A stretch of DNA of 20,866 bases from a virus. Lineage: Duplodnaviria; Heunggongvirae; Uroviricota; Caudoviricetes. The notes under the pieces were generated by a model. The model was given only the letters and a program-made list of their open reading frames with translations. It was not told where the DNA came from and made no database searches. Position numbers and translations under genes: made by a program. Positions 8,897 through 12,884 of this stretch are shown in pieces. Location of the stretch: positions 1-20,866 of IMG/VR virus record IMGVR_UViG_2534682222_000015, one strand, 5' to 3'. Position 1 is the stretch's first letter, and the number at the start of each line of letters is the position of its first letter.

Positions 8897-8924
8897 GCCA
8901 AAAATAAAGGCCGACTATGCGGCC
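8897..8924 (-). terminator. Intrinsic terminator-like hairpin (GGCCG-loop-CGGCC + U-run) overlapping the stop of the 207-aa gene
   Basis: Inverted repeat 8909-8924 with A-run 8901-8908 on plus strand. Confidence 0.4.
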
Positions 8925-9538
8925 TCGGAAGGAAGTCCAATCATCTTATTCAAATCTTCTACCCGTAAAGCAGGAAGTGCTGTACTTGCTTTATCTGCTT
9001 CTTTTGGTAGCAACTCTTTGCTTTCAGGCCAAACTTCAATAAGTCGCTTAACTGTTGTGACTGAGTTCAAAGCAGCCCATACATTTGATTCGATATCCTT
9101 TTTCTTGGCTTCAAGTTTTTGTTGCAATGCGCAGATTTCATCAAACCTTTTTGTTATTTCGTGTTCTGCGCTAAACATGCATTTATCTTCGTTCGGAGCA
9201 GGGAGCAATATATCTTCGCCGTTGCCGTCTTTCCCATATGAAAGCCATCCAACCCTTCTGCCAGATACAGTCAGATAAATTGAAGTAGAACGAACATCGT
9301 ATGAGTAAAATGAACATCCCATCTTTCCAAGTTCTTCACTTATAGCTACCAACTTGGATGATAACTGATCCACTTCCTCAGTTTTCTTTTTACCGCCAAA
9401 CGCAATAACTCTGGCGTCAAGTGCAAGCTGGTTCTTTAACTTTGTTACTTCTTCAAGTTCAGTGAAAACCCCAGACTTAATTAAAGCGTTACGAGCGATT
9501 ATCTCTTTCATTCTCGTAGTTAAGCGGATTGATGACAT
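8915..9538 (-). CDS. Hypothetical protein (207 aa from MSSIRLTTRMKEII…), translationally coupled to N; occupies the sieB-like slot
   Basis: GAGAGGA RBS; only 11 nt after N stop; AT-rich; track ORF extends 20 codons further upstream into N. Confidence 0.6.
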   Translation of the reverse strand: MSSIRLTTRMKEIIARNALIKSGVFTELEEVTKLKNQLALDARVIAFGGKKKTEEVDQLSSKLVAISEELGKMGCSFYSYDVRSTSIYLTVSGRRVGWLSYGKDGNGEDILLPAPNEDKCMFSAEHEITKRFDEICALQQKLEAKKKDIESNVWAALNSVTTVKRLIEVWPESKELLPKEADKASTALPALRVEDLNKMIGLPSEAA

Positions 9539-9549
9539 ATTAATTCCTC

Positions 9550-9876
9550 TCAAATAAGTGGTTTGCTGCCTAATTTCATTTTCTGGCGACCAACACAAGT
9601 CACCCCCATTTCACTGCGTGGCTTGCTGTACCATGTGCGCTGATTCTTGCGCTCAATACGTTGCAGGTTGCTTTCAATCTGTTCGTGGTATTCAGCCAGC
9701 ACCGTAAGGTCTATCTGATTCAGTGCGCTTTCTACTCGTGATTTCGGTTTGCGATTCAGCGAGAGAATAGGGCGGTTAACTGGTTTTGCGCTTACCCCAA
9801 CCAACAGGGGATTTGCTGCTTTCCATTGAGCCTGTTTCTCTGCGCGACGTTCGCGGCGGCGTGCTTGTGCATCCAT
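9550..9876 (-). CDS. N: Antitermination protein N (lambda-like, 108 aa)
   Basis: MDAQARRRERRAEKQAQWKAANPLLVGVSAKPVNRPILSLNRKPKSRVESALN… matches lambda N from memory; AGGAG RBS; nutL upstream. Confidence 0.9.
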   Translation of the reverse strand: MDAQARRRERRAEKQAQWKAANPLLVGVSAKPVNRPILSLNRKPKSRVESALNQIDLTVLAEYHEQIESNLQRIERKNQRTWYSKPRSEMGVTCVGRQKMKLGSKPLI

Positions 9877-10048
9877 CTTGATTCTCCTGTCAGTTAGCTT
9901 TGGTGGTGTGGTAGGTGGGAGACCCATTTCGACCTGCTTCGGCCGACTTCAATTCGGCAATAGTTCCGCAGGCCTCGCCGCTTTACGTGCGACATATTCC
10001 CATCCATGAACCCTTCACCACACCCCAAAGCCTTCTGCTTTGAATGCT

Positions 10049-10078
10049 GCGCTTTTTCAGCGCCAGATTTTTAAGAGC
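10049..10078 (-). promoter_or_regulatory. nutL: nutL: boxB hairpin (minus-strand GCGCTGAAAAAGCGC, 10049-10063) and boxA-like GCTCTTAAA (about 10070-10078)
   Basis: Read directly; boxB differs from lambda nutL boxB (GCCCTGAAGAAGGGC) at the stem but keeps the GAAAAA loop. Confidence 0.65.
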
Positions 10079-10118
10079 TTCACCGTCCTGGTGAGTAGTG
10101 CGTCCTGCTGATGGAGCA

Positions 10119-10187
10119 ATATTCACGTATTGTGATTTAAATGTCAATCACGATATGTGTATAATTTATTTATCACACGATATGTGT
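10119..10187 (-). promoter_or_regulatory. PL promoter (-35 TTGACA at 10143-10148, -10 GAATAT at 10119-10124, minus strand) with three OL operator sites of form TCAC-N5-GTG(A/T) at 10123-10135, 10148-10160, 10175-10187
   Basis: Three similar 13-bp dyads spaced about 25 bp apart; same dyad family recurs in OR. Confidence 0.6.
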
Positions 10188-10258: not shown

Positions 10259-10483
10259 ATGGGGCTGGGAATGGATATGGGTAGGGATGAACTGCTGGAA
10301 GACCGCGCAGCTTTCATCGCTGGCGAGATTGGCGGCGCGGTTGTTGAGTTGATTATCGGAGGGGTGGTGATTAATAGGGATGCGATTGTGGATAGCTTGG
10401 AGACCAAGAGGAGGGCGGTGGGTAATGTTATTCACAAGGGATTGCTGAGGGATGCTGCGGAGTTCGTGAGGAAAGGACAGTAA
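10259..10483 (+). CDS. Questionable small ORF (74 aa) in G-rich, C-poor spacer between OL and the rex-slot gene terminator
   Basis: AAAGAGGG RBS-like sequence 7 nt upstream of ATG; strongly skewed composition; may be non-coding. Confidence 0.2.
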   Translation: MGLGMDMGRDELLEDRAAFIAGEIGGAVVELIIGGVVINRDAIVDSLETKRRAVGNVIHKGLLRDAAEFVRKGQ

Positions 10484-10504
10484 AAACCCGGCGCGATGGC
10501 CGGG
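10482..10504 (-). terminator. Intrinsic terminator of the cI / rex-slot operon (CCCGGC-loop-GCCGGG + U5 on minus strand)
   Basis: Hairpin 10487-10504 immediately after the stop at 10511-10513, A-run 10482-10486 on plus strand. Confidence 0.6.
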
Positions 10505-10510
10505 TCACTA

Positions 10511-11353
10511 TTAAGGCTTCTTCTTATCGTGCTTTACTAGTGCTTTGTGTGTTTTCTTGATACTGCTTCTAACTTTTTGAATTTTATCTTGAGACAACTT
10601 AATACTCTCAGGTGCCGTTCCTGTGTTGGCAATCATTACATTTCTAACAGATCTTCCAACTGTTTCAGCGGCATTTTCAAGTTGCACCTGCCCCTTAAGA
10701 TTCTGGTTTCTTATTCTTGCTTCTGTTTGTGTTATTCGGAAAATGTTAGCAGCAAGTTCTTCGCTGCCCATAAAATCAAGCATTGTTCCATCTTTTTTAG
10801 TTAGTCCTTTGCGGGCTTTCAATTGCGTGAGATTCATGTTGTACATCCCGCGATATCCTGCATTTTGAAAAAGACCATAGTCTACTACGCCATGCTTATG
10901 TGCCACGTGGCTAAGAGTCTTTTCTCTTGAAGTGATTTCACCACGCAAATAAACTCGGTTAACTGCATCATGGTTATGATACGCCGCTTGAATTTCTGCT
11001 GCCAGACCAGCAAAGTATGCCTGAGCATTTGCAACTTTCTGATTGCTAATATCGCCATTCATTACAGTTAAATAGCAAGCAAATCGAGTTAATTTAAAGT
11101 CATTTTGCGCATTCTCAGAAGGCATCTGAATGAAGTTGTCGTAGACGGGGATATCAAGGTTAACGCATACAGACGTTGCCTTGTTGATGGCTTTTAGTAT
11201 CTGGTCCATACCATTATACCCAAGCATCATCGCCAGATCAGATGCGAACCAATAGGTAACACCATTCTCCCTGGCGAAATCATCAAATGTTAACTGTGAT
11301 GCGTCATCGAAAACGGTAATTTGCCTACTCATATCACACCCAAACTTACTCAT
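10511..11353 (-). CDS. Bro-N/KilA-N-like N-terminal domain protein, possibly DinD/RhuM-family (280 aa), in the position lambda uses for rexAB
   Basis: N-terminal motif …TYWFASDLAMMLGY… typical of Bro-N type domains; C-terminal segments (RFACYLTVMNGD, FQNAGYRGMY, MLDFMGSEELAANIFRITQTE) resemble, from memory only, E. coli DinD-like proteins; AAGGGA RBS. Confidence 0.7.
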   Translation of the reverse strand: MSKFGCDMSRQITVFDDASQLTFDDFARENGVTYWFASDLAMMLGYNGMDQILKAINKATSVCVNLDIPVYDNFIQMPSENAQNDFKLTRFACYLTVMNGDISNQKVANAQAYFAGLAAEIQAAYHNHDAVNRVYLRGEITSREKTLSHVAHKHGVVDYGLFQNAGYRGMYNMNLTQLKARKGLTKKDGTMLDFMGSEELAANIFRITQTEARIRNQNLKGQVQLENAAETVGRSVRNVMIANTGTAPESIKLSQDKIQKVRSSIKKTHKALVKHDKKKP

Positions 11354-11425
11354 TGAACATCCCTTATTTTAATATAAATTAGAAAAATTGTCCGTTGATT
11401 ATCGCAAGCCATTAGAGCTTGACCT

Positions 11426-11454
11426 CTCATCACCCAAACGTCTCATCAGGCCAC
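11426..11454. repeat. Direct repeat copy 1 (degenerate duplicate of the last about 30-45 bp of cI), 87 bp downstream of cI
   Basis: ctcatcacccaaacgtctcatcaggccac vs copy 2 cttatcacccaaacgtctcttcaggccac (27/29 identical), with further shared gcaacaacc nearby. Confidence 0.7.
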
Positions 11455-11512
11455 CATAAGCACGATCGCAACAACCGAGAGCAAAGTAACCACGCCTACT
11501 ATCAGATATTCT

Positions 11513-11541
11513 CTTATCACCCAAACGTCTCTTCAGGCCAC
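11513..11541. repeat. Direct repeat copy 2, spanning the cI stop codon and last 7 codons
   Basis: See copy 1. Confidence 0.7.
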
Positions 11542-12269: not shown

Positions 12270-12485
12270 ATGAACAACATTGCAGAGCAGCGAAAAAAAA
12301 TTGGGATTTCGCAAGCCGCTCTGGCTTCTGCCATAGGCTGGGGGCAGTCGCGAATTGCCAATTATGAGCTTGATATCCGCACCCCTGGTCTGCCGGAAAG
12401 TCGCCTTATTGTCGAGGGCCTGAACCGTCTCGGTTGCAATTGCTCCCTTGATGACGTTTTCCCACCAACTACCAGCGCAGCCTAA
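12270..12485 (+). CDS. cro: Cro-like HTH repressor (71 aa)
   Basis: Small HTH (…IGISQAALASAIGWGQSRIANYE…) first gene of PR operon, opposite cI. Confidence 0.75.
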   Translation: MNNIAEQRKKIGISQAALASAIGWGQSRIANYELDIRTPGLPESRLIVEGLNRLGCNCSLDDVFPPTTSAA

Positions 12486-12526: not shown

Positions 12527-12605
12527 ATCAAATTAAACCACACCTATGGTGTATGCATTTATTTGCATACATTCAATCAATTGTTATCTAAGGAAATACT
12601 TACAT

Positions 12606-12884
12606 ATGCAACTTACAAGTACTCGCAAGAAAGCGAATGCAATTACAAGCAACATCCTGAATCGAATTGCTGTACGTGGTCAGCGAAAGGTTGCCGACGC
12701 GTTAGGGATTAATGAATCGCAAATTTCGCGATGGAAAGACAGCTTTATCCCAAAGATGGCCATGCTTCTGGCTGTTCTTGAATGGGGAGTTGTTGATGAT
12801 GAGATGGCGAGACTTGCTCAGCAGGTGGCATCGATTCTCACAAAAGAAAAACGCCCAGCTGTTGGTAGCAGTCTGGACGCTTAA
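12606..12884 (+). CDS. cII: CII transcriptional activator (lambda-like; 92 aa from MQLTSTRKK…)
   Basis: …GINESQISRWKDSFIPKMAMLLAVLEWGVVDDEMARLAQQVASILTKEKRPA… matches lambda CII from memory; AAGGAAA RBS; track ORF begins 20 codons upstream. Confidence 0.85.
   Translation: MQLTSTRKKANAITSNILNRIAVRGQRKVADALGINESQISRWKDSFIPKMAMLLAVLEWGVVDDEMARLAQQVASILTKEKRPAVGSSLDA
12639..12652 (-). promoter_or_regulatory. Candidate CII site (minus-strand TTGCTTGTAATTGC = TTGC-N6-TTGC) inside the 5' end of cII, possible PRE -35 region
   Basis: Exact TTGC-N6-TTGC consensus on the antisense strand; spacing to the conserved ATATGTAAGTATTTCC region differs from lambda, so function uncertain. Confidence 0.3.

Follow-up and report, generated by a model that had tools for sequence, protein, structure and literature searches.

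Lambdoid prophages keep genes that protect the lysogen, such as rexAB and bstA, in the interval between the repressor gene cI and the left operators (OL). In phage lambda, rexA and rexB occupy this cI-OL interval, where they are transcribed together with cI, have an additional internal promoter and are followed by a terminator ahead of OL. The slot, also described as the region between cI and N, is a known hotspot, in which both rexAB and bstA have been found (PMC8585504). BstA, encoded by the Salmonella prophage BTP1, is a KilA-N two-domain protein that acts by abortive infection and blocks phage DNA replication; it is highly expressed in lysogens, and its gene is located behind repressors in many Gram-negative prophages (PMC8585504). 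Here, we describe a prophage with another type of cargo at this place. In IMGVR_UViG_2534682222_000015 (positions 1 to 20,866 of this IMG/VR record, the whole 20,866-nucleotide (nt) stretch being referred to as the window), the interval holds a gene for a 280-amino-acid (aa) homologue of the Escherichia coli protein DinD, which follows cI on the same strand and ends in an intrinsic terminator (Table 1). We put a probability of roughly 45% on the reading that this DinD-like gene is a lysogen-expressed candidate moron, the product of which, judging from its sequence and a structural model, would bind DNA discontinuities or recombination intermediates and interfere with foreign phage DNA. In the literature searched, we found no earlier description of DinD-family cargo in the cI-OL slot.

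E. coli DinD (PcsA, b3645) is LexA-regulated, and the region upstream of dinD in strain K-12 carries the LexA box CTGTATATAAATACAG. First identified in 1980 as one of the din genes (Kenyon and Walker, cited in PMC2577331), dinD has had no clear function assigned to it since. The family is also covered by PDC-S13, a PADLOC candidate based on guilt-by-embedding in BREX, DISARM or type I restriction-modification (R-M) loci, and in a separate survey a dinD/RhuM gene was recorded within a type I R-M operon (PMC9881135). The prophage protein is related to DinD over its full length and not just in its C-terminal segments, to which the original prediction had tied the kinship: the NCBIfam model NF008573 (DNA damage-inducible protein D) matches residues 22-278 with E 4.5e-57, and BLASTP aligns 258 aa with K-12 DinD at 34% identity (E 2e-44). 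The NF008573 score, 193.6 bits, lies below the equivalog cut-off of 242 and, on sequence grounds, the prophage copy is a full-length homologue and a paralogue rather than a DinD orthologue or equivalog. PHROG 8036 (function unknown) matches it end to end. Matches were also obtained with the PDC-S13 models PDLC04919 (E 6.1e-85, residues 18-279), PDLC04918 (E 1.3e-32) and PDLC04920 (E 3.5e-8). K-12 dinD (locus L003, 5761-6585) matches PDC-S13 better still (E 2e-121), so that a PADLOC-based survey will score any genome with dinD as having a defence candidate; K-12 dinD also matches a 717-position type I specificity-subunit model over the first ~260 positions (E 3e-114), and the PADLOC HsdS model PDLC03083 matches DinD over the N-terminal ~280 positions of the model. 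The family is large, with 2227 matches at E <= 1e-5, and ~50% identity reaches as far as Zixibacteria, Leptospiraceae and Magnetococcales; the prophage protein is nearer (~50% identity) to the 'DinD' of distant phyla than to E. coli DinD.

In the protein, an acidic Bro-N domain (~23-121) is joined by a short linker to a basic, helical C-terminal domain (128-250), after which comes a lysine-rich tail; the computed isoelectric points are 4.3 (residues 1-121), 9.75 (128-250) and 10.6 (251-280). Its N-terminus had been described as Bro-N/KilA-N-like, and the Bro-N part of this assignment holds: Pfam Bro-N (PF02498) matches residues 29-110 above its gathering score of 25.6 bits (33 bits, E 9.6e-8), a region that includes the motif WFASDLAMMLGY (residues 35-46), whereas neither KilA-N nor RhuM, a model also named for checking, gave a Pfam match at E < 0.1. 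The C-terminal domain, for which there is no Pfam match to ANT/KilAC, is the most conserved part across 61 homologues, for example in the blocks FQNAGYRGMYN and LDFMGxEELAANxFRITQTE. This domain composition bears on whether the protein might be a Bro/Ant-type regulator, that is, an antirepressor or transcription factor acting on other prophages or on genes of its own phage. Such a role would suit the PGAP name of the copy in E. coli E2348/69 ('BRO family protein'), the presence of Bro-N among the interchangeable N-terminal domains of AriS-like regulators (PMC9043618), and fold matches in BFVD that include KilA-N and 'regulatory' or 'repressor domain' proteins (E 2e-3 to 7e-2). We nevertheless think it very improbable: the most conserved domain is not ANT/KilAC, the Bro-N domain is acidic, as is the corresponding domain of the Deinococcus protein DdrC, which is negatively charged and thought not to bind DNA (PMC9303277), and the ~50% identity shared with homologues in Zixibacteria and Leptospiraceae does not suit a phage-specific regulator.

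Comparison of alleles indicates that this is a functional gene under extreme purifying selection. A second allele is present in a prophage of E. coli E2348/69 and in nine other complete genomes; among 5426 complete RefSeq E. coli genomes, this related allele (83% nucleotide identity) occurs in 10 and the window allele in none. The window and E2348/69 alleles are 95% identical in protein and 83% in DNA sequence, with synonymous sites near saturation (proportion of synonymous differences, pS, 0.69; synonymous divergence, dS, ~1.9) and a ratio of non-synonymous to synonymous divergence (dN/dS) of 0.014, which rules out a hitch-hiking or decaying gene. The first 60 nt of the gene are 95% identical between the two E. 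coli alleles, as against 75-90% elsewhere (gene average 83%), and could reflect either a constraint on translation initiation or an embedded DNA element like aba in bstA.

The gene is found behind many different repressors. The identical protein is encoded on many contigs and, among the places listed, an S24 repressor precedes the gene in eight out of eight; these repressors differ from each other (215, 219, 234 and 237 aa) and are accompanied by HTH_3-, lambda-Cro- or YdaS-type Cro partners and by different N proteins. The E2348/69 allele is located at the same place behind a different LexA-family repressor, and the order of repressor followed by DinD-like gene recurs in Yersinia (84% identity), Pasteurella multocida (68%), Neisseria (66%) and a further element (57%). 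On 74 IMG/VR viral contigs, the nearest upstream open reading frame (ORF) on the same strand has an HTH_3 domain in 53 cases and a Peptidase_S24 domain in 47, and the proteins encoded by these upstream ORFs share only 11-73% identity with the first of the set. Judged by these comparisons, the gene is a mobile cassette that accompanies numerous unrelated repressors in at least four bacterial families. The constraint on the gene is unusual and its repressors are many, which together make it a strong single-gene candidate for testing against a phage panel. More distant homologues are present in the lysogeny module of streptococcal satellites, and a 54%-identical one has a ResIII helicase gene on one side and a DNA methylase (N6_N4_Mtase) gene on the other.

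The sequence also retains what we interpret as the left recombination joint of the cassette, which is marked by a relic of the last 31 nt of cI within the spacer between cI and the DinD-like gene. In the functional copy, this duplicated 3' end encodes ...WPEETFG-stop. Loci L004 and L011 have a single copy of the cI 3' end and a 76-nt spacer, and phi80 matches 113 base pairs (bp) across the joint at 98% before it continues into a different cargo gene, 40A. The right joint is variable, from 10483 to ~9897. The conserved cI 3' end looks like a recombination linker for the swapping of cargo. Related phages, such as phi80 and the prophages in loci L004-L011, differ in cargo or repressor. Gene 40A of phi80 (L002, 3115-3981), in the equivalent slot, encodes Pfam domains DUF7946 and DUF7947 and has a weak match to PADLOC PDC-S42 (E 1e-5). 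In the P. multocida prophage (L015, 5866-9900), the DinD-like gene is followed downstream by a convergent Gp49/HI1420-type toxin-antitoxin pair, and the further cargo consists of a gene for a helix-turn-helix protein and then one for a 322-aa reverse-transcriptase-domain protein, an arrangement that resembles a stacked accessory or defence hotspot.

The link to repressors could also have to do with the stability of the prophage itself, and the original prediction had already named tuning of SOS induction by a RecA modulator next to cI as one of two possible roles. In such a model, the protein would reduce RecA activity or mask breaks in the DNA of the lysogen, resulting in less activated RecA and less spontaneous or low-dose SOS induction. 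The frequent association with S24 repressors, which are RecA-cleavable (47 of the 74 loci), agrees with this, but the gene is also found behind non-S24 repressors, the embedding of the family in R-M loci is left unexplained and, according to an abstract by Uranga from 2011, DinD reportedly leaves unaffected the RecA filaments on single-stranded DNA (ssDNA), the co-protease form that drives repressor cleavage. Two papers that cite Uranga 2011 name DinD among the proteins that dismantle RecA filaments, after synapsis, the reported activity being disassembly of RecA filaments on duplex DNA and inhibition of strand exchange (PMC4786428; PMC4457935), as the original prediction had stated in more general terms; in addition, a dinD::Mud fusion showed delayed SOS induction and the cold sensitivity of pcsA68 is recA-dependent (PMC2577331). 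On the other hand, RecA-dependent transformation was not greatly affected when a dinD-like gene of a pneumococcal island was deleted along with the regulatory genes (PMC10602874). There is precedent for phage proteins with such an effect in the AriS-like regulators (AntA, Bro-N or pRha combined with ANT/KilAC), which lower the SOS response, with RecA inhibition as the proposed mechanism (PMC9043618), and a DdrC-like binder of ends or nicks that shields DNA from nucleases (PMC5436757) could limit RecBCD processing. Weighing these points, we consider a stabilizing function unlikely, and tuning of SOS induction less likely than the exclusion of other phages.

How the gene is expressed can be predicted from the signals around it. 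As originally proposed, there is no terminator between cI and the DinD-like gene and a strong one directly behind it: terminator-like hairpins were sought in the 163-nt spacer and none was found (folding z-score 0.67, no unusual structure), whereas the 3' terminator has an 8-bp stem (6 G-C pairs), a 6-nt loop and a T-run (-14.4 kcal/mol). The same holds beyond the window, in that a strong intrinsic terminator is located directly 3' of the gene in 9/10 loci (from E. coli, Yersinia, Pasteurella and Neisseria), and the upstream gene is followed by the DinD-like gene with no terminator in between in 9/10 loci from the four genera. This layout fits read-through from the repressor promoter(s), and the predicted Shine-Dalgarno sequence, kept as AAGGA or AAGGGA in homologues, is usable on such transcripts. 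Expression from PRM, which had been proposed for the lysogen, is compatible with this, but the gene need not depend on PRM, given a conserved promoter-like -10 element in front of it. In the window, the -10 hexamer TAAAAT ends 12 nt before the ATG, and a hexamer of this kind (TAAAAT, TAGAAT, TATAAT or TACAAT) precedes the ATG by 11-14 nt in 23 of the 30 unique upstream regions of homologues; a TG extension is present in 15 of these 23, a canonical TTGACT -35 element at 17 nt in others. Among 322 other ORF starts of these loci, such a start-proximal -10 was seen only 3 times, never with TG (Fisher p 7e-27, a value that overstates independence, as the upstream sequences are related). The spacer sequence that flanks the hexamer is not itself conserved among homologues. 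A -10 that alternates between a TG extension and a -35 element behaves as real promoters do, which argues that the DinD-like gene probably has its own dedicated, predicted constitutive promoter in addition to read-through.

Two other explanations of the upstream sequence were rejected. An upstream mini-ORF (ATG ATA AAA TAA) is ruled out as the cause of the conserved motif, since neither the E. coli alleles nor the TTGACT-type promoters have its ATG. SOS control by way of a LexA box is likewise ruled out: the whole window has no match to the box within 3 mismatches, and the surroundings of the gene have no CTGT-N8-ACAG. No cI operator overlaps the promoter-like element or the spacer. With a conserved putative -10 element of its own, a terminator in 9/10 loci and related phages that differ in cargo or repressor, the gene has the layout of the 'moron' class, units expressed from a repressed prophage in which a gene dispensable for lytic growth has its own promoter and terminator, and its position directly downstream of a repressor, with a terminator of its own, is that described for BstA.

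A possible biochemical activity is suggested by the predicted structure. An AlphaFold2 model calculated from a 61-sequence alignment (predicted local distance difference test (pLDDT) 89.8; predicted template-modelling score (pTM) 0.82) shows an N-terminal domain of alpha/beta type that is connected to a helical C-terminal domain by a short linker of low confidence (123-125). In a Foldseek comparison with solved structures, a check that the original prediction had put forward, all six DdrC chains rank first (E 5e-5 to 3e-2, probability 0.97-1.0, ~230 aligned columns), and all other matches have E > 0.5. According to the model, the prophage protein has in common with DdrC (PDB 7QVB, 7UDI, 8U0G) a two-domain fold with a beta-hairpin and winged helix in the N-terminal and a helical bundle in the C-terminal domain, and the charge pattern is also alike, with an acidic N-terminal domain and basic surfaces elsewhere; identity in the structural alignments is 15-20%. 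DdrC is a domain-swapped asymmetric dimer. It binds both single- and double-stranded DNA, condenses and circularizes DNA and shields it from nucleases (PMC11347143; PMC5436757), traps pairs of nicks or double-strand ends (PMC11347143), and its DNA binding has been assigned to surfaces other than the winged-helix domain (PMC9303277). The two DdrC structure papers report no homologues outside Deinococcus (one is PMC9303277), and our literature search found no paper that links DdrC with DinD. We regard the link, which was made through a model, as a strong lead and not as proven homology. Should it be homology, the trapping of nicks and ends by DdrC would become a testable model for the whole DinD/PDC-S13 family.

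The same fold match raises the possibility that the gene provides damage tolerance by lysogenic conversion, with the protein holding broken or nicked host DNA in the manner of DdrC, so that the lysogen survives better and the benefit goes to the host. A ddrC mutant is UV-sensitive (PMC5436757), the family includes the SOS-induced dinD, and a unit of promoter, gene and terminator with moron architecture would serve this purpose as well. We regard this as quite unlikely, for E. coli already has dinD, no UV phenotype for dinD is reported in PMC2577331, and neither the cross-genus linkage to repressors nor the embedding in R-M loci is predicted by such a function.

In the reading that we favour, the candidate moron directed at foreign phage DNA, own promoter, gene and terminator would make up a self-contained cassette in the cI-OL slot, from which the lysogen would make the protein at all times, on transcripts that read through from the repressor promoter as well as on those started at the gene's own promoter. 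The protein would bind DNA ends, nicks or recombination intermediates, or RecA, and its activity in the lysogen would be aimed at incoming or replicating foreign phage DNA. Circularization, recombination-dependent replication or concatemer formation would then be blocked, leading to superinfection exclusion, the second role named in the original prediction, or to defence. The prophage itself, being a circle when it excises, would be less exposed. The genomic context points in the direction of defence, including the slot as a hotspot, the PDC-S13 and HsdS model matches, the ResIII/methylase neighbourhood and the dinD/RhuM gene in an R-M operon.

Several observations weigh against this reading and keep its probability below one half. 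The most important for us concerns other homologues of the gene: those in Riemerella phage RAP44 and Bacteroides phage BF1-TP2 are found among early genes such as Erf, NinB, RusA and NinG, and this placement in early recombination/replication modules, which suggests a role in the phage's own DNA metabolism, is the main reason why we do not weight defence higher. Others are plain chromosomal genes (E. coli dinD; Zixibacteria). The gene is rare in E. coli, as shown by the genome counts given above, and the DinD-like protein has no recognisable effector domain. PDC-S13 is one of 145 PDC systems described as untested candidates; the term 'PDC-S13' was not found in the literature search or in the supplements of the PADLOC embedding preprint, and DefensePredictor makes no mention of DinD or Bro-N. 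The similarity to DdrC exists at fold level only and lacks sequence or profile support, as neither the family profile, nor the protein itself, nor E. coli DinD gave a PDB sequence match at E <= 10 (DdrC included), and the template-modelling (TM) scores are low (0.3-0.47), as would be expected if the domain arrangements differ, DdrC being domain-swapped. Finally, with the -10 hexamer 12 nt from the ATG, a transcript from the candidate promoter would have a leader of only ~5-7 nt and would lack the Shine-Dalgarno sequence, which is unusual.

The features of the region are collected in Table 1. The 13-bp operator motif TCACGATATGTGA has five matches, as compared with 0.4 expected by chance, and three of them are OL; given the positions of the operators, the DinD-like gene lies exactly in the cI-OL interval. 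The original prediction of a single gene in the rex slot was correct in that the 280-aa gene lies between cI and OL/PL, but it left out a convergent 74-aa ORF, which is located there as well. The promoter-like site of this ORF overlaps OL, from which repression by cI, a switch-on at induction and antisense transcription toward the DinD-like gene would follow. According to tblastn, loci L005-L009 and L011 have the ORF, L004 has a frameshifted version and L010 one with 45% identity, the E2348/69 allele has none at its side, and phi80 has an unannotated, 44%-identical homologue adjoining OL (L002, 2878-3066); the ORF has no Pfam or PADLOC match. Its distribution ties it to OL and not to the DinD-like gene. 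A role as obligate partner or obligate antitoxin is ruled out, since it is absent at the E2348/69 allele and 45% identical in L010, and phi80 pairs it with different cargo. BTP1 also has a small convergent ORF between bstA and N (L109, 3489-3659; 56 aa, annotated FumD), and small convergent genes beside OL may recur in this slot; the 56-aa and 74-aa ORFs have no sequence relation. Directly downstream of N in the PL operon, a gene on the minus strand (8915-9598) encodes nucleotide modification associated domain 5 (Nmad5; E 2e-70), and the same gene is present at the equivalent place in locus L009. At the left end of the window, ybhC is 100% identical to E. coli, and the host is therefore E. coli or Shigella; from 1331 onward, the window matches HK97, including the integrase (int) region, and the prophage modules match Sf101, mEp043 and HK97 at 97-98%, the prophage, as the sequence indicates, being integrated next to ybhC.

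Table 1. Features of the window in and around the cI-OL interval.
Feature	Position	Strand or orientation	Details
ybhC	1-1284	minus	left end of the window; 100% identical to E. coli
N protein	9550-9927		lambda N36 peptide domain
boxB-like hairpin	10049-10063		GCGCTGAAAAAGCGC
PL-like promoter	10147-10118	minus	TTGACA-18-AATATT; overlapped by OL operators
OL operators	10123-10135, 10148-10160, 10175-10187		right-hand limit of the slot (10118..10187 with PL)
Promoter-like site of the 74-aa ORF	10136-10165	plus	TTTAAA-18-TATAAT; overlaps OL operators
74-aa ORF	10259-10483	plus, convergent	PHROG 3975 (E 2e-36); between the terminator of the DinD-like gene and OL
Intrinsic terminator (predicted)	10485..10506	minus	GACCCGGC-CATCGC-GCCGGGTT + TTTAC; closes the transcription unit
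DinD-family gene	10511..11353	minus	ORF, 280 aa, ATG start
Spacer between cI and DinD-like gene	11354..11516	minus	163 nt
Shine-Dalgarno sequence (predicted)	11360..11365	minus	AAGGGA; 6 nt upstream of ATG
Promoter-like element	11366..11394	minus	-35 CGGACA (11394-11389), 17-nt spacer, -10 TAAAAT (11371-11366)
Relic of the last 31 nt of cI	11424..11454	minus	GTGGCCTGATGAGACGTTTGGGTGATGAGAG; non-coding; 87 nt downstream of the functional copy (11511-11541)
cI repressor, 215 aa	11517..12164	minus	HTH_3 and Peptidase_S24; upstream of and co-oriented with the DinD-like gene
OR operators	12177-12237		matches to the same motif as OL
Cro	12270-12485	divergent from cI	domain search
CII	12546-12884	divergent from cI	domain search

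With respect to earlier work, the family, the slot and the moron concept are already known, and the family has been flagged by PADLOC; what is new is DinD-family cargo in this slot, the cross-genus linkage to repressors, the conserved promoter-like element close to the start codon and the fold match to DdrC. In our view, these would provide a handle on two old puzzles, namely the in vivo role of DinD and whether the 'Deinococcus-unique' DdrC has relatives. A more far-reaching idea, to which we give a low probability, is that DinD and DdrC form one ancient superfamily that senses DNA ends, nicks and joint molecules and has its primary niche in mobile-element conflict; the prophage copy would then be a constitutive single-protein immune effector that traps the ends or recombination intermediates of incoming phages, and dinD and ddrC would be chromosomal, damage-regulated offshoots.

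Among the described systems, E. coli DinD is a full-length homologue with the same two-domain build, and it also matches PDC-S13. The prophage copy differs from it in having no LexA box, in being placed behind cI and in its constitutive-looking predicted promoter, so that its regulation would be the opposite of SOS induction. PDC-S13 as a category is based on embedding in BREX, DISARM and type I R-M loci, whereas the window copy is located in a prophage immunity region, between cI and OL. The AriS-like proteins are similar in being phage-encoded two-domain proteins, some of them with Bro-N, but the part of AriS that inhibits the SOS response is ANT/KilAC, which has no counterpart here, and AriS is encoded in an early lytic module and not behind a repressor. 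Lambda rexAB likewise occupies the cI-OL interval (for a comparison of the slot see PMC8585504); instead of a sensor and membrane-protein pair, the window encodes one protein, predicted to be cytoplasmic and of a DNA-binding type, and no Rex model is among its PADLOC matches. Membership of the BstA family is ruled out: hhalign gives a probability of 0.65% (E 0.089) over the N-terminal 65 columns only, the PADLOC BstA model does not match the DinD-like protein while it matches BstA itself with E 1.9e-124, and tblastn found no BTP1 match. BstA also has the aba self-immunity element, which overlaps the start of its gene; at the DinD-like locus only the conserved first 60 nt are observed. The prophage gene is therefore a parallel to BstA and not a member of its family, and the parallel extends over the whole unit, which in both cases consists of cI, a short spacer, a gene for a ~300-aa two-domain protein with a KilA-N/Bro-N-type N-terminus, a terminator, a small convergent ORF and N.

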